22,782 nucleotides of DNA from a virus (Duplodnaviria; Heunggongvirae; Uroviricota; Caudoviricetes): IMG/VR virus record IMGVR_UViG_2778261160_000006, positions 1 through 22,782 of that record; one strand, written 5' to 3'. Positions 88 through 18,309 of the stretch are shown here, piece after piece. Position numbers and translations under genes: made by a program. Under the pieces are notes generated by a model, which did not search any database, was not told where the DNA came from, and worked only from the letters and a program-made list of their open reading frames with translations. Numbering within the stretch: the first letter of the stretch is position 1; each line of letters starts with the position of its first letter.

Positions 88-120
88 GAAGCCCGCGATA
101 TTTTAAGCGGGCTTTTATTT
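88..120. terminator. GC-rich hairpin (AAGCCCGC / GCGGGCTT) followed by a T-rich tract, just outside the tfa stop
   Basis: Inverted repeat read directly at 88-113 with TTTATTTT following on the + strand; which gene it terminates is unclear because the window starts here. Confidence 0.35.
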
Positions 121-701
121 TAAACTTCTGGTATTACAGGCCACTCAATATCAGGTGCAGTTGATGTATCAACACGGTTCAGCAACACCCGATACTTCTT
201 CCAGGCTTCCAGCAACGAGTTTTCTTCCTCCGTTGCGATCTCCAGATCTACAGCATCCTGAAGTGGCGCAATATGCTCACTGGCTACCTGCATCAGGCTG
301 TTTTTTGTTTCTTCCGCCTCCCGGATCCGGAACAGTTTTTCTGCTTCTGCATCTTTCACCCAGGCTGTGCCGTTCCACTTCTGAAACTCCCCTTCCGGCG
401 ATAACCAAGTAACATTTTCCGGTAACGGACCGAGTTCAGAAATAAATAACGCGTCCCCTGACGCTACGTCATAAACCGTTTTACCCCGATGATCTTCAAC
501 GAGATGCCACGATGCCTCATCACTGTTGAAAACAGCCACGAAGCCTGCCGGAATATCTGGCGGTGCAATATCGGTACTGTTTGCTGGCAGACCTGTATGA
601 GGCGGAATATATGCATCACCTTCACCAATAAATTCATTAGTTCCGGCCAGCAGATTATAAATTTTTATGGTCCGTGGTTGTTCACTCATTCTGAATGCCA
701 T
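120..701 (-). CDS. tfa: Tail fibre assembly protein, lambda Tfa-like, 193 aa
   Basis: The translation [39 protein letters not shown]... is near-identical over its whole length to lambda Tfa as I remember it. Its ATG overlaps the stop of the upstream ORF (TAATG), as at the lambda stf-tfa junction. Confidence 0.9.
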
Positions 702-9181: not shown

Positions 9182-9270
9182 AAACGTCCCCGTTTAGCGC
9201 AGAAGTCACCGGAGTTGTTCAGGCTCCGATGACATGATTATGGCGAGTTGATTATCGCAAATCAAAGGTT

Positions 9271-9627
9271 TTAATTGTGCTTTATTCCTTCAAGCGTTGC
9301 CTTCATACCAACCAAAGAAATGTTTAGCTCTCCAACTTTCTCAGGGCTATATAATTCAGAATGAAGCCAATATTCTGATTTATCTAAACATCTTTTAGCC
9401 AGCTCTCGATCAAAGTCTACGACTTGGGAAGACGCTTCATACCAAAGCCTATAAAGTTTTTCTTCTTCGTTTGGGTTATTAGGCTCACCACGTTTTAATT
9501 TTTCAGTATATAAAATTGTTGAACAAATCGCAGGAGTTAATCCAGTGATTGCCCTCTGCCGCAGATCGGATTTGTTTGTTATCCACCCCAACAGACGATC
9601 TCCCATCCATGTGATAATTGTATCCAT
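9271..9627 (-). CDS. Hypothetical protein, 118 aa, AT-rich cargo gene of unknown function
   Basis: Clean ORF MDTIITWMGDRLLGWITNKSDLRQRAITGL... with low GC relative to the phage backbone; I recognise no family. It occupies the slot where K-12 DLP12 carries ybcL/ybcM. Confidence 0.5.
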   Translation of the reverse strand: MDTIITWMGDRLLGWITNKSDLRQRAITGLTPAICSTILYTEKLKRGEPNNPNEEEKLYRLWYEASSQVVDFDRELAKRCLDKSEYWLHSELYSPEKVGELNISLVGMKATLEGIKHN

Positions 9628-10088
9628 GCTTTAGCCCTTCTTAGTAAATAGTGTGTAGGGCGACTGAAGGACCGAGTTTATGCTTTTTCGCATTGCTTTC
9701 AGTTAGTACACCGGTATCGCACCGGAAACAATCCTACGGCAAATTGGTTGTCTGACCTCTCGGTTTTTCGTGCATTAACCGATACCCACTACAGTCTCGG
9801 CGAAAGCTGCACACCCCCAGGGTGTACTGGTAGCACTCGGCACAGCCTAGCACGCCACTTTCTTCTCACTATCCAGTCTAATTTTATCCCCTAGTCAGAC
9901 ACTCAGATGTAGTGCTCCGCAGCGGCATGCGGGGGAATACAAAAACTCGGACAAAATTGGGCCCTCCTTTTTGAATCACTCGCGGGGATGTAGTTATTAA
10001 TACATGGAAAAAGATCTGTTTTCAAATCCAACATTATATGGTTTCAATACCACGGGGTGGCTATGTGTTTCTCATTGTTAATTGGAAT

Positions 10089-10412
10089 CTACTGTAATCG
10101 ATCCGAACGTAAATGCGGCAAAACTCGACTCCACTTATCATCCTGCCACGGCCGGAATTTTACATGTGCCGTTTCTCTGGCAAGGATTGCCTGTGCCTTA
10201 TTGAGTATCTGGGGATATTCTTGCTCGATAGAAGTGAAGCGACCAGCTTCACGATGCTCCGCAACCTGAAGAAGAGGAGTAACGTTCTGGTAGGTAATTA
10301 ACATCACATTCCCTGCTCGCCATAACCAGGCGAGTGTGCAAAGTTCGTTATCAGTGAATTGTTTTGTGATTGGGGATTGTTGAACTGCTAGAACGAGAAC
10401 GCCAGCATCCAT
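10089..10412 (-). CDS. Hypothetical protein, 107 aa, unknown function
   Basis: ORF MDAGVLVLAVQQSPITKQFTDNELCTLAWLWRAGNVMLITYQNV... immediately downstream of the serine recombinase gene; I recognise no family. Confidence 0.45.
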   Translation of the reverse strand: MDAGVLVLAVQQSPITKQFTDNELCTLAWLWRAGNVMLITYQNVTPLLQVAEHREAGRFTSIEQEYPQILNKAQAILARETAHVKFRPWQDDKWSRVLPHLRSDRLQ

Positions 10413-10523
10413 TGGCAGTCCCTATAGTAAAACCATAGCTCAGGACGCTTCGTTCAGGATAGATAATTTTATTGTACTTACCTAACTTTCTTACTATAGC
10501 ACGGTTGAAAAAGTGATTATTAC

Positions 10524-12050
10524 TCAAAAATAAACCTCACCATCAACCATATATTTGAGAGCACTTATCGCCTGCTGGGCGGATATTACTTTCATTAAAG
10601 GATAGTGTTTAAAAACAATGCCATTCATAAAATAGATATCACAGGTTTTATTATCCGTATTAATTATGATTTTTTCGAATGTTTTATAGGCAAGTGTACG
10701 GCATAACTCTCGTCCATTTTTACTGGTTAAGTCAATAGCATAAAAATCACTGAATGAATTTACACCTTTACTCTTCAAAGTTTTCAATGATACCGAAGCC
10801 CTTCTTAATTCCTTATCTAATAGTCTTATTTTCTCTGCTATAGCGGTAACTTCAGGCGCGACAGACAATGCAACGATTAAATTATTAATTTTCATCTGAA
10901 GCTCAATAATTTTTAACTCTAAAGTTTCATTAGCATCTTTCTTGTTTTCAACTGGTTGAATTTTGCTACAATTAAAAAGCAATTCATTAATGATATTATA
11001 ATCAACCAAATCTCTTTTTATTGATGGCCTGTCACATCGATGTAATCTTCTCATCGGACAAACATAATAGCCATGCAAACTTCCAGATACCGCATGAACA
11101 ATCATGGTATTACCACAAGCCTCACACTTCATAACTGTTCGAAGTAGATTTATTAGCATAGGATTCTTGCTACTATTGCTAATACCAAAAGGTGCCAACC
11201 GAATTTCCTGTACAGCGTAAAACAAATCATCTGATATGACTCTGGGATAATAGCCAGCGATTTCACTTATCCCTTTCCCTCTTGCACGATATGAAGGTAC
11301 GCATATACCTATCAGAGCTTTATTCGCTAATAATTTTTCAATTACAGAAGGTCCCCATGCACTTTCTTTTCCTGAGAAATTCTTTACAGCATGATCATTT
11401 AAATACTTGGCTATTGCATTCAATGAGCGCCTTTCCATCCTGAGTTTAAAAATTAGCTCAATAGTTTTCACCCTGTCGGGGTCTGGAACAAAAGCCGTTC
11501 TTTTGTCATCTAAGGAGAGCCATCTCGGACAAGACGCCGTCATAATCGTACCTGATTCCAGTGCATCCTGCCGTTTTTTCTTCCATGATAATTTAACCCG
11601 ACTTGACTTTATCTCGCTTTCTTCATTTGCCCTTTGTGCTATAAGTATGGCTTTTATTAATGAATATGGCTCATTCAAAGAGTCAATATTATAGACTGTA
11701 TTGTCGCAAAGAGTTATAACATCAATACCGTGATTCAAAATCAATTTCAGACGTTCAATCGCTTCACCGACTTTTTCTCTTGAAAGTCTGTCCAGACTTT
11801 CAACTAACAATGTAGTTCCTGGCAATATATAACCATGCTCTATAGCATCTAAAAATTCCGAAAAAGCTCCTGATTGTGCATGCTTTCCTTTGAATGCACT
11901 TAATCCTAAATCTTCATATGTTATGGTATCAAGATAATAATCACTATTTACCTTTAACCATTCAGCAATAAGTCTTCTCTGTCGGTTTAATGAGTCGCCA
12001 GACATCTGACCTGGTGATGAAAATCGCATATATGCTATGGCTTTTTTCAT
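10524..12050 (-). CDS. ybcK: Large serine recombinase (resolvase/invertase-type catalytic N-domain, recombinase domain and Cys-rich zinc-ribbon region), 508 aa
   Basis: N-terminal catalytic motif AIAYMRFSSPGQ with the nucleophilic Ser, a Cys cluster CEACGNT...YYVCP...HRC, and a C-terminal coiled coil. The gene is strongly AT-rich, and the length and sequence match DLP12 YbcK. Confidence 0.88.
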   Translation of the reverse strand: MKKAIAYMRFSSPGQMSGDSLNRQRRLIAEWLKVNSDYYLDTITYEDLGLSAFKGKHAQSGAFSEFLDAIEHGYILPGTTLLVESLDRLSREKVGEAIERLKLILNHGIDVITLCDNTVYNIDSLNEPYSLIKAILIAQRANEESEIKSSRVKLSWKKKRQDALESGTIMTASCPRWLSLDDKRTAFVPDPDRVKTIELIFKLRMERRSLNAIAKYLNDHAVKNFSGKESAWGPSVIEKLLANKALIGICVPSYRARGKGISEIAGYYPRVISDDLFYAVQEIRLAPFGISNSSKNPMLINLLRTVMKCEACGNTMIVHAVSGSLHGYYVCPMRRLHRCDRPSIKRDLVDYNIINELLFNCSKIQPVENKKDANETLELKIIELQMKINNLIVALSVAPEVTAIAEKIRLLDKELRRASVSLKTLKSKGVNSFSDFYAIDLTSKNGRELCRTLAYKTFEKIIINTDNKTCDIYFMNGIVFKHYPLMKVISAQQAISALKYMVDGEVYF

Positions 12051-16385: not shown

Positions 16386-17249
16386 ATGGATTGTGACGCT
16401 TTACAGGATATAAAAATCTCTCTTAGGTATGACGGAAAAGATGCTTTAAATCATGAAATAGATTTGAACTGCCTAGGAGAATCCCTAAAGGGTTTTTCTA
16501 AAGTTCTCTCAACAGCAGCTTCTTTCTCTGTTACACAAAAATATAGTAAATACATTAATTATCAGGAAGTTAAGGTTTACGCACGCGAAGCAAAAGCTAA
16601 CTGCTTTACTCTTGAAGCAGTTCTTAACTTCGCCACTCAGAACCAGTTGTTCTCGGGGATCGCCGCAACTATACTTGGCGCAATACTACAATATATTTTT
16701 GCGAGAAATTCTAACAAGAAAGATGAAATGAAAGCTTTGCAGCAGTCACTTGAAAAGGCCATAGAGGCACTAGGAAACAAGGATGCTGGAACCATTGATA
16801 AGTTGATCTCTTTGATTGACCGAATGGCTGTAGAGCTTCGCCCCTCTGTAAGGCAGGCAGTATCACCTATTGGTAATACTTGCGATCAGATAAGTGTTGC
16901 AACAAATGTTGACGGCTGCCTTCTAAAAGTTAACGAGAGAGATAAAGCTGAAATTGATAGGCTTGATGATGATGAAGTTCTCGGTCTTCGTGAGTATCGT
17001 GCTTTTCTTACAGAATTTGATGCACAAAATATGACAGCTAAAATAATTTTAGATGGTGATGACTCAAAAAAGAGAATCACTGCTGAAATTAGCGATCCAG
17101 CTGCAGGAAAGAAGAATAACCCGTATATTAGAGCTCTTAGTGCATATATATCAACCAAAGGTGATCCATCTGCAGTATTCACTATAACCGCAAAGGCTAC
17201 TGTTAAAAAAGGCCAGATAAACAGGTTATTTATTGTAGATGCGAAATGA
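16386..17249 (+). CDS. Hypothetical 287-aa protein in the rexAB position (directly downstream of cI, same strand); AT-rich, with one central hydrophobic segment and a predicted coiled-coil region; candidate lysogen-expressed exclusion or defence gene
   Basis: A clean ORF with markedly lower GC than cI, sitting 66 nt after the cI stop and followed by a strong intrinsic terminator. It has a hydrophobic stretch [19 protein letters not shown] and no similarity to RexA/RexB that I can see. Confidence 0.6.
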
Positions 17250-17253
17250 TTTC

Positions 17254-17280
17254 CCCGGCCGTCGTGCCGGGTTTTCTTTT
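17254..17280 (+). terminator. Rho-independent terminator of the cI / 287-aa transcript (CCCGGC-loop-GCCGGG followed by TTTTCTTTT)
   Basis: Perfect 6-bp GC stem with a 6-nt loop and a T-tract, immediately after the 287-aa ORF stop. Confidence 0.65.
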
Positions 17281-17399
17281 GCCTCCCCTCATCACACACC
17301 GTTCAAAAAACCACCACAACCTCCCTTCAGTTATCGCTATGCGATGCAAGTCACAAAATTAATTCTTTTTGCTATCAAACAGTTAATATCAAAACACAT

Positions 17400-17455
17400 C
17401 AATCAATAGCTATAAGTATTGATAGCACCAATAGCAATAGCTATTATTACCATGT
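17400..17455 (+). promoter_or_regulatory. pL-like early-left promoter (-35 TTGATA at 17419-17424, 17-nt spacer, -10 TATTAT at 17442-17447) overlapping OL-like operator repeats (CAATAGCTAT, AATAGCAATAGCTATT)
   Basis: Near-consensus sigma-70 hexamers with ideal spacing, overlapped by the same ATAGC motif family found at OR, at the position expected for pL/OL relative to cI. Confidence 0.6.
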
Positions 17456-17645
17456 CGCAACAACACAACGATACGGCAACCACCTGATTCACCGTTGCGA
17501 TGACCGCTTAGATCCGCAGCTTGAATTTCGGCAGGCTCCGGGGAGTGCGAGGGGTGAAACGGACGCGTGAACGTCGGTGTGACCAGCTGAAATCAACTCA
17601 ACTCAACACCTCATACCTCAGTCGCTTCAACGAGGCGGCTTAGTT

Positions 17646-17936
17646 ATGACAACCGGCGGCCATCCACCGCCTGAATACGCGCAGAAGTCTCTATATGTTC
17701 AGCAGCCCAGCTTACGGGCAGGAGTTTTTATGGTTCATCAACATTACGGAACGCAGACCGTTAATCGAGGTGCGGTCATGCCAGGAATGCTGGTCAAACA
17801 CAAAGATGGTACCTGGACTGCATCAGCTAATTTACGCGGACGGCTATATCTGCATCGCGGCATCGAGCGCACTTATACCCGTGATTTGCTCGTAGAAGTT
17901 TTTCTCGACGGACGCGGTAACGGCCTGAATCACTAA
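17646..17936 (+). CDS. Hypothetical protein, up to 96 aa, first ORF of the pL operon in the kil/cIII position
   Basis: ORF with phage-backbone-like GC whose 3' end runs into the 5' region of the lambda long-Gam reading frame in a different frame. I recognise no similarity, and the start codon is uncertain. Confidence 0.35.
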   Translation: MTTGGHPPPEYAQKSLYVQQPSLRAGVFMVHQHYGTQTVNRGAVMPGMLVKHKDGTWTASANLRGRLYLHRGIERTYTRDLLVEVFLDGRGNGLNH

Positions 17937-18012
17937 CCCCCCTTTCCTGTTTTCCTAATCAGCCTGGCATTTCGCAGGCGATATTTTCACAGCCATTTTC
18001 AGGAGTTCAGCC

Positions 18013-18309
18013 ATGAACGCTTATTACATTCAGGATCGTCTTGAGGCTCAGAGCTGGGCACGTCACTACCAGCAGATCGCCCGTGAAGAGAAAGAGGCAG
18101 AACTGGCAGACGACATGGAAAAAGGTCTTCCACAGCACCTGTTTGAATCACTCTGTATCGATCATTTGCAACGCTGCGGGGCCAGCAAAAAAGCCATTAC
18201 CCGTGCGTTTGATGACGATGTTGAGTTTCAGGAGCGCATGGCAGAACACATCCGGTACATGGTTGAAACCATTGCTCACCACCAGTTTGATATTGATTCA
18301 GAGGTATAA
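18013..18309 (+). CDS. gam: Gam, short form GamS (RecBCD inhibitor), 98 aa
   Basis: [54 protein letters not shown]... is near-identical to lambda GamS. The upstream long-form extension is not intact. Confidence 0.9.

Follow-up and report, generated by a model that had tools for sequence, protein, structure and literature searches.

A candidate structured RNA gene beside a variable cargo slot in the nin region of lambdoid prophages

Structured RNAs of a few hundred nucleotides (nt) with tertiary contacts are rare, and those described come mostly from outside the model enterobacteria. The present work concerns a candidate for such an RNA, a conserved element of about 331 nt which lies in the spacer at positions 9628-10088 of a 22,782-nt stretch of viral DNA (IMG/VR record IMGVR_UViG_2778261160_000006, positions 1 to 22,782; the whole of this stretch is referred to below as the window). 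Among the closest described systems, ROOL, which is about 580 nt long, and GOLLD occur mostly in Firmicutes and relatives; type III toxin-antitoxin systems such as ToxIN have the order promoter, non-coding RNA (ncRNA), terminator, protein gene, and are borne on mobile elements that take part in phage conflicts; and put of HK022 is an RNA of about 70 nt whose two stem-loops lie right after PL and PR. Many members of GOLLD exceed 800 nt, and GOLLD, like ROOL, is often located near tRNA islands; the covarying contacts of ROOL and GOLLD proved to join different RNA copies (PMC12286853). STnc6030, an RNA of more than 700 nt from the Salmonella prophage BTP1 which is antisense to tail-spike/injection genes, is expressed in the lysogen and acts on phage-phage competition through extensive complementarity, excluding related phages (10.1101/787010). 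It shows that the accessory transcription units of prophages can be RNAs. Morons are described as units with an independent promoter and terminator which lie between phage genes (PMC3594210).

The element resembles ROOL and GOLLD in being phage- or prophage-borne and free of open reading frames (ORFs), and in having a modelled multi-helix fold with a covarying loop-loop contact (PMC12286853), but it matches neither model in sequence or structure. It recalls put and the EAR element as a structured RNA in phage or operon transcripts upstream of terminators, with the difference that a promoter-like block belongs to it; no Rfam model was matched, and from both pairs of systems it is set apart by its length of 331 nt and its place in the nin region, in the first case also by its enterobacterial lambdoid carriers. 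Unlike STnc6030, it overlaps no gene, has no excess of complementarity to its own phage and is defined by its fold; with ToxI it has the succession of parts in common, but it contains no tandem repeats, is followed by unrelated proteins and does not covary with the downstream gene. With morons it shares the succession of promoter-like block, payload and terminator between phage modules, and the tendency to reassort, except that the payload would here be an RNA and the promoter is a predicted one.

The spacer very probably contains a functional RNA element. The more specific reading preferred here, on the evidence of sequence comparison and with moderate confidence, is that it holds the gene for a conserved structured ncRNA of about 331 nt which is read from the minus strand and forms a self-contained unit. 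The element is uncatalogued, in that it belongs to no Rfam family and full-text literature searches returned no description of this RNA. As its carriers are lambdoid phages of Escherichia coli and Klebsiella, it would be open to genetics, probing and cryo-electron microscopy in the best-developed phage system.

Conservation, pairing and reading strand

The window derives from a DLP12-type lambdoid prophage of E. coli (positions 9200-10500 are 100% identical in strains EC93 and H10) in which the replication genes, emrE and ybcK are followed by ybcN/ninE/ybcO/rusA/Q, all on the minus strand. An earlier note, made from the letters of the window alone, had singled out the spacer as an ORF-free interval among tightly packed genes, had offered a structured ncRNA, a recombination site for the adjacent serine recombinase and a decayed gene as its possible identities, and had proposed comparison with RNA family models, an analysis of covariation in homologues and a frame-by-frame search for protein similarity. 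The interval is real, and 9628-10088 is bounded exactly by two minus-strand ORFs of 118 and 107 amino acids (aa). The close packing was also correctly described: in the identical locus of EC93 most early genes overlap or abut, and the 461-nt gap is the largest of the block. The limit of about 43 codons that had been given for ORFs in the spacer is essentially right though slightly low, the longest ORFs wholly within it being 48 aa (9748..9894, plus strand, TTG start) and 43 aa (9903..10034, minus strand). Its base composition, described as moderate and not promoter-like, does have that character overall (46.2% G+C, compared with 46.3% for the window), but the average conceals a core at 9659-9989 with 51.1% and a stretch of 99 nt at 9990-10088 which is AT-rich (32.3% G+C) and promoter-like. 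RefSeq annotation leaves the spacer blank in all 159 complete E. coli genomes that carry it, while phage records contain spurious small ORFs there. A stretch without ORFs is not in itself significant; it is the conservation of this one in unrelated gene contexts, together with its covariation, that exceeds chance.

Every complete copy of the element is 329-331 nt long and extends from AUCCCCGCGAG to CAGUCGCC. Carriers were found among complete E. coli genomes (159 of 5,426) and in four phage records (Escherichia phages Turner and IdasGreatGrand, Klebsiella phages Kp4856-1 and Kp4862-1), and exact-pattern scans recovered about 66 viral and about 25 metagenome contigs, the same set of about 66 viral contigs being returned by each of four different invariant blocks. 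In total there are 32 distinct sequences which fall into six lineages, 75-88% identical to one another. At 78-83% identity the element is present in Kp4856-1/Kp4862-1 and also in a prophage of E. coli 3426 which is unrelated and has different flanking genes. A further viral scan and a single metagenome scan yielded no member more divergent than those already found, and a plasmid collection contained no match. The map position is fixed, upstream of the ninB-ninE-rusA-Q block, and the adjoining genes are unrelated: the upstream neighbour may be an antirepressor remnant, a dATP/dGTP pyrophosphohydrolase, a DUF551 protein or an unknown, and downstream a variable cargo gene precedes the ninB/ninE/rusA/Q block. 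Among the neighbours there is no constant protein partner, no protein family being present in every locus.

A consensus fold computed with RNAalifold from 25 sequences contains 83 pairs, 13 of which are changed on both sides. The model was extended to 31 sequences (alignment A3) with the addition of a loop-loop contact and an extended hairpin, giving 93 pairs. These pairs are kept in 97.1% of cells, compared with 35-43% in controls in which the 3' side of each pair is displaced by 1-3 columns (slid controls); 15 of them are changed on both sides, compared with 1-6 in the slid controls, and cells with two-sided changes number 130 and at most 25 respectively. The covariation score of the model is 0.214, compared with 0.128 for shuffled alignments (reached by none of 500) and about 0.05 for slid ones. 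The proposed check of covariation in homologues came out in favour of pairing, and of the three identities offered the structured ncRNA is the one supported, by the fixed length, the covarying helices and loop-loop contact, the strand asymmetry and, in relatives, an intrinsic terminator.

The covariation resides mainly in the central domain. Its best-covarying helix (A3 columns 129-134/184-189) is paired in 100% of cells, with two-sided changes at three of six pairs, and occurs across the lineages as GAAAGU/GCUUUC, AAGAGU/GCUCUU, GAGAGU/GCUCUU and GAAGGU/GCCUUC. The hairpins at A3 139-146/150-157 and 190-198/205-213 add to the signal, the second being 97.6% paired with two-sided changes at four of eight pairs. 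The loop of this second hairpin pairs in the model with a loop of the 5' domain. The resulting contact spans about 120 nt, is 98.9% paired and scores 0.369, compared with 0.126 for shuffled alignments (none of 500 reaching the observed value) and at most 0.07 for slid ones; it exists in three perfectly complementary versions, CACUAC/GUAGUG in lineages 1 and 4, CGCAAC/GUUGCG in lineages 2 and 5, and CACCAC/GUGGUG in lineage 3. When runs of antiparallel columns were scanned without bias, the central helix and this loop-loop contact were the only stacks with at least two two-sided pairs. An inverted-repeat finder applied to the window sequence alone recovers the contact (repeat I14) as well as the helices I4, I7 and I10.

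Two long-range helices close the 3' two-thirds of the model. GACUGG/UCAGUC (9873-9878 with 9662-9667; A3 113-118/324-329) is 100% paired, and CCGAGA/CUCGGU (9759-9764 with 9671-9676; A3 227-232/315-320) is 96% paired with one two-sided pair. The 5' domain is the most conserved part, 86-94% identical in those pairs of lineages that were compared, and contains a Shine-Dalgarno-like (SD-like) AAGGAGG; over nt 1-125 it is near-invariant, and its pairing is compatible with the model. GUCUGACY and GGUCAGAC (8 base pairs (bp)) are complementary in all members, and since both are invariant no covariation is possible between them. A candidate pairing of the SD-like GGAGGGCC with the 3' GGUCCUUC is 95% paired, which does not exceed the value for shuffles.

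The two inverted repeats that had been named in the earlier note are both present, but they are mostly not conserved hairpins. GTACACC (9706-9712) is complementary to GGTGTAC (9821-9827), corresponding to repeat I9 and to RNA nt 163-169 and 278-284; its three outer pairs are kept in 31 of 31 sequences and covary, but about half of the sequences have lost the inner pairs, and a local hairpin makes use of the same 5' strand, in competition with the repeat. The second, CCGCAGCGGCATGCGGGGG at 9917-9935 (CCGCA/TGCGG), is not conserved, two or three of its five pairs being kept.

The pairing points unambiguously to the minus strand as that of the RNA. There the consensus energy is -71.8 kcal/mol, compared with -46.6 kcal/mol for the plus strand, and the modelled pairs comprise 364 G·U cells and 14 A·C cells.

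None of the known RNA families accounts for the element. When the 4,227 covariance models of Rfam 15 were run on the window at their gathering thresholds, the only match was to IS009, elsewhere in the window; at E<=10 the region 9500-10250 gave a single chance match, to CyVA-1 (E=8.7), outside the core. Six diverged relatives gave nothing at the element at the gathering thresholds, nor did the copy in locus L071 at E<=10. The same scan finds STnc100, isrJ, SraC/RyeA and a tRNA elsewhere in those loci, which indicates that it works. ARAGORN found no tRNA or transfer-messenger RNA (tmRNA) in the window; an apparent resemblance of GAGAGGUCAGAC to a stretch of E. coli tmRNA was judged compatible with chance. 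A type III antitoxin RNA was also considered and rejected, as there are no tandem repeats and the downstream genes vary and match no PADLOC model. No reverse transcriptase gene of the kind that would indicate a retron was present among the annotated neighbours or the neighbour proteins scanned with Pfam, a scan which did not extend to every neighbour family.

Promoter-like block and 3' ends

Immediately upstream of the core lies a block with the layout of a bacterial promoter (Table 1), whose hexamers hold their position in all but one of the 25 distinct upstream contexts, although the sequence of the spacer that separates them is free to vary. The -35 hexamer occurs as TTGAAA, TTGAAT or TTGTAT and the -10 hexamer as TTTAAT, ATTAAT or TTAAAT, and upstream of the block the sequences are unrelated, with 29-54% identity. 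A fixed spacing of hexamers from a conserved 5' end is the signature of a promoter, and from this positional conservation we infer that the block functions as one, with a predicted start at 9989, the first conserved base.

Several palindromes adjoin or overlap the block. Four lineages (L062, L059, L065 and relatives) have the inverted repeat AACCATAtgttgTATGGTT right beside the -35 hexamer, some 35-55 nt before the RNA start; it is perfect in L062, with one mismatch in most others; it was considered as a CI/Cro operator and rejected, since it bears no likeness to the immunity operators of the window. Specific to the window lineage is the palindrome TGAAAACAGATCTTTTTCCA (10005-10024, minus strand; repeat I2), which contains GATC and fills the spacer between -35 and -10; it may be an operator or a Dam-sensitive site.

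At the other end of the core, a canonical intrinsic terminator follows after 5-9 nt in 12 of 21 distinct 3' contexts (23 loci, representing three of the six lineages and part of a fourth). In L059 the scanner calls this terminator, TACCGCCttgtGGCGGTA followed by TTTTTTT, at a distance of 5 nt from the core. In one lineage the terminator has decayed, and the members without one, namely the window lineage, L057/L062 and L071/L099, run into the next ORF.

Table 1. Position of the element, its parts and its immediate flanks in the window
Feature	Position	Strand	Description
RNA core	9659..9989	-	331 nt; start AUCCCCGCGAG, end CAGUCGCC; alignments A2, A3
5' domain	9886..9989	-	closed by AUCCCC/GGGGAU (9984-9989 with 9886-9891), helix 1; repeat I4
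Kissing-loop 5' arm CACUAC	9909..9914 (RNA nt 76-81)	-	loop of 5'-domain hairpin
Central-domain helix GAAAGU/GCUUUC	9802..9862 (arms 9857-9862, 9802-9807)	-	encloses two hairpins
Central hairpin	9778..9801 (arms 9793-9801, 9778-9786)	-	loop bears kissing arm; A3 190-198/205-213
Kissing-loop 3' arm GUAGUG	9787..9792 (RNA nt 198-203)	-	loop of central hairpin
Long-range helices	9662..9878	-	close 3' two-thirds; repeat I7
Promoter-like block	9996..10025	-	-35 TTGAAA 10020-10025, 17-nt spacer, -10 TATTAA/ATTAAT 9996-10002
AT-rich stretch	10026..10088	-	from 107-aa ORF stop to -35; imperfect palindrome, clearer in relatives (AACCATAtgttgTATGGTT, L062)
Linker	9628..9658	-	31 nt, from core to ATG of 118-aa ORF; ribosome-binding site AAGAAGGG
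118-aa ORF	9271..9627	-	phrog_12412; no Pfam family
Antirepressor remnant	10089..10412	-	P22_AR_C domain only; not part of element

Possible functions and competing explanations

The most likely reading of this arrangement, as far as comparison of the copies can indicate, is a free-standing, trans-acting RNA gene with a promoter of its own. A sigma-70-type promoter would initiate the transcript at 9989 or close to it, the early-right operon being read in the same direction, and the gene would be a moron-like unit whose expression in the prophage is independent of the long early transcript. The RNA would act in trans by means of its compact fold and invariant blocks, most likely by binding or sequestering a protein or nucleic acid of the host or of a phage. 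Antisense action on the transcripts of its own prophage would be unlikely and was rejected, since the RNA is complementary to other parts of the window over 13 nt at most, a length that shuffled sequences also reach. In the window lineage, where the terminator is lacking, the RNA would also constitute the 5' part of the messenger RNA of the 118-aa ORF, with which it is probably co-transcribed.

The nin region is a mosaic accessory stretch, and the element lies directly upstream of a slot that is occupied in each lineage by a different, mostly uncharacterised cargo gene. Given this position, it is plausible that the element takes part in conflict between phage and host or between phages, or that it controls the cargo slot. 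The kissing loop may present the same ambiguity as in ROOL and GOLLD, since by analogy with them the contact could form within one copy or between copies. It is possible, though rather doubtful, that the element is the founding member of a new class of compact, tertiary-structured RNAs of enterobacterial lambdoid phages, similar in kind to ROOL and GOLLD, in which the contact would lock the fold or build an RNA-only assembly and which would be expressed in the lysogen from their own promoter to serve in conflict, for instance as a decoy or sponge for a defence protein or host factor.

A number of results weigh against the interpretation as a free-standing structured RNA gene. A sigma-70 consensus scanner, applied to the window, L059 and L003, calls no promoter at this site; the -35 TTGAAA and the spacing do fit, but the block is missed because the -10 hexamer is without the consensus A at position 2, as is the case in every lineage. 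The window lineage has no terminator, so the RNA there may be merely a long leader. The element is rare: a search of 185,579 species-representative genomes with a two-block pattern did not find it, returning only four chance matches in unrelated phyla. The minimum free energy of the single sequence is unremarkable (z = -1.26), and much of the model, with the 5' domain in its entirety, shows no variation, so that the pairing there is a prediction of the model. All of the covariation is borne by six lineages which are 75-88% identical, and with so few lineages 299 single column pairs seem to covary by chance; the listing of single-pair covariation was dropped because it contained too many false positives, and only stacked runs and slid controls were relied on. 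In the most divergent member, L071, which is a single sequence, four of the six kissing-loop pairs are kept.

The main rival, unlikely in our judgement, is a cis-acting leader, a 5' untranslated region that would control the cargo gene by regulated termination, antitermination or ribosome access in the manner of riboswitches, protein-binding leaders or processive-antitermination RNAs. A gene on the same strand is always close. In the window type and in L057, L062, L071 and L099 it comes next after the core; in the other cases a terminator intervenes, and the gene, which lies a few tens of nt beyond it, has no obvious promoter of its own. The same fold can thus be followed by either kind of 3' end, a terminator or a ribosome-binding site that is reached directly, which resembles alternative expression platforms, and in the window pairing is possible between AGGGC of the ribosome-binding site and the bases that end the core (GCC, then CU). 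Weighing against a leader of this kind are the downstream genes, which are unrelated (phrog_12412, DUF1367 and four unknowns), and the terminators, whose stems differ in sequence between lineages, lie outside the core without overlapping it and show, by inspection, no conserved antiterminator pairing. Nor is the 118-aa ORF an obligate partner, since an ORF of its type follows the RNA in only two of the six lineages (the window type, and that of L057 and L062). In the commonest E. coli variant (L005, 1300-1500, minus strand) this ORF has been cut to 66 aa and the next gene brought 137 bp closer while the RNA remains intact, at 96-97% identity, and a distant homologue of the 118-aa protein is encoded by a Klebsiella phage in which there is no space that could hold the RNA. 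Central domains of the RNA that are only 64% identical are found before a downstream gene that is 91% identical, which implies that RNA alleles and cargo genes reassort.

The free-standing gene is also challenged, with less force, by an explanation in which the element has no promoter of its own and the fold is a structured part of the early-right transcript, for example the surroundings of a nin terminator of the tR2 type, which would be set free by processing or would be of importance only for the stability or termination of that transcript. The operon and the RNA have the same orientation, the promoter-like block fails the consensus test, and a strong terminator at this map position would fit what is known of lambda, whose nin region carries the terminators tR2-tR4. 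We consider this explanation improbable, because a -35 TTG and an AT-rich -10 block keep a fixed distance from the 5' end in nearly all of the otherwise unrelated upstream contexts described above, and because about 30 nt suffice for a terminator, whereas this fold takes up 331 nt and includes a tertiary contact that covaries.

It is more improbable still that the element is conserved without having any function, as recently spread phage DNA which hitch-hikes at a mosaic boundary or provides homology for recombination and whose covariation is due to chance. The family is admittedly narrow (six lineages, with at least 75% identity), spurious single-pair covariations are many, and recombination breakpoints are found at or inside the element in L046, L055 and L068. 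Against this stand the length, fixed in spite of 12-25% divergence, the concentration of changes in helices, where they are compensated, the low pairing of the slid controls, and the marked asymmetry between G·U and A·C, which neutral DNA would not be expected to display. The domains of the RNA are also more conserved than the neighbouring coding sequence: between the window and L057/L062 the 5' domain is 88-89% identical and the 3' domain 80-82%, compared with 72-74% for the ORF (71% for its protein).

A decayed protein gene, or a set of small genes, is hardly credible. An antisense frame, on the plus strand of the window, runs without a stop over 77 codons in the window itself and over 109 in roughly one half of the variants that were examined, and two small ORFs are annotated inside the element in one phage record. 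The antisense frame has no start codon, however, is broken in the remaining half or so of the variants and reads an invariant block in different phases across variants, owing to indels of 1 and 2 nt. All three sense frames contain 2-8 stops in every variant, and the variable columns are distributed over the codon phases as 54/49/49, without periodicity. No frame has a match in Pfam or PHROG when all six are translated, and the antisense frame used as bait among 5.8 billion proteins retrieved only a single 61-aa fragment; the coding reading was rejected on these grounds, and the decayed gene of the earlier note is not supported. Five of the six lineages retain a 19-codon ORF which has a UUG start and is preceded by a perfect AAGGAGG; it is interrupted by a nonsense mutation in the L007 subtype of E. 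coli, and in L071 by a frameshift and loss of the SD sequence. Its variable codons are exactly the bases of the kissing loop, so that translation is possible, yet the variation follows the RNA pairing rather than the codons.

An attachment or crossover site for the neighbouring serine recombinase YbcK, as offered in the earlier note, or some other protein-binding DNA, is no better supported: inverted repeats are present, and upstream of the core, at a distance of 534 bp, is ybcK (10524..12050), which encodes resolvase, recombinase and zinc-ribbon domains, but its family occurs in only 13 of 67 element loci, Tandem Repeats Finder (minimum score 30) detects no tandem or direct repeats, and the pairing is strand-specific and maintained within one strand by compensatory changes, neither of which is expected or needed of a recognition site in duplex DNA.

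Neighbouring genes and minor observations

Upstream of the element, the antirepressor remnant of the window corresponds in L041 to a full-length homologue of 249 aa, which extends from 849 to 99 nt upstream of the core start, its end and that of the remnant being equally far from the RNA. The existence of this full-length homologue indicates that the window bears the scar of a deletion between ybcK and the promoter region of the RNA.

Among the cargo genes, comparison with the PADLOC defence models gave no match, and the only Pfam match was to DUF1367. Two cargo genes have features that were noticed by eye only: the 183-aa ORF of L003, which lies behind the terminator and starts 384 nt after the core start, contains a HEPN-type R-x4-H motif (RHNLLH), and the 177-aa ORF of L071, 383 nt after the core start, has a PIN-like beginning (IIDSNA). 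Neither of these ORFs has a match in Pfam or PADLOC.

Some copies of the element have been broken or altered by recombination. In L055 the sequence is unrelated up to about core nt 100, in L046 it has been replaced from about core nt 305, and in L068 the -10 block has been kept and the -35 region is different.

In L071 a tRNA and the Salmonella island small RNA isrJ (620-691 and 1075-1148) are located downstream of Q, which suggests that this is a Gifsy-like prophage of the Salmonella type. The edge of L057 (13004-13148) contains SraC/RyeA-SdsR, a position which suggests that it marks the integration site.

The IS009 match in the window is full length (227.9 bits, with a gathering threshold of 117) and occupies 160-358 on the minus strand, inside a 193-aa ORF (120..701, minus strand) of the packaging/head region. 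In EC93, RefSeq annotates a SIR2-family protein beside the repressor gene at 17233-18834 of L001, equivalent to about 16430-18030 of the window; the ORF list of the window gives a 287-aa ORF at 16386..17249.

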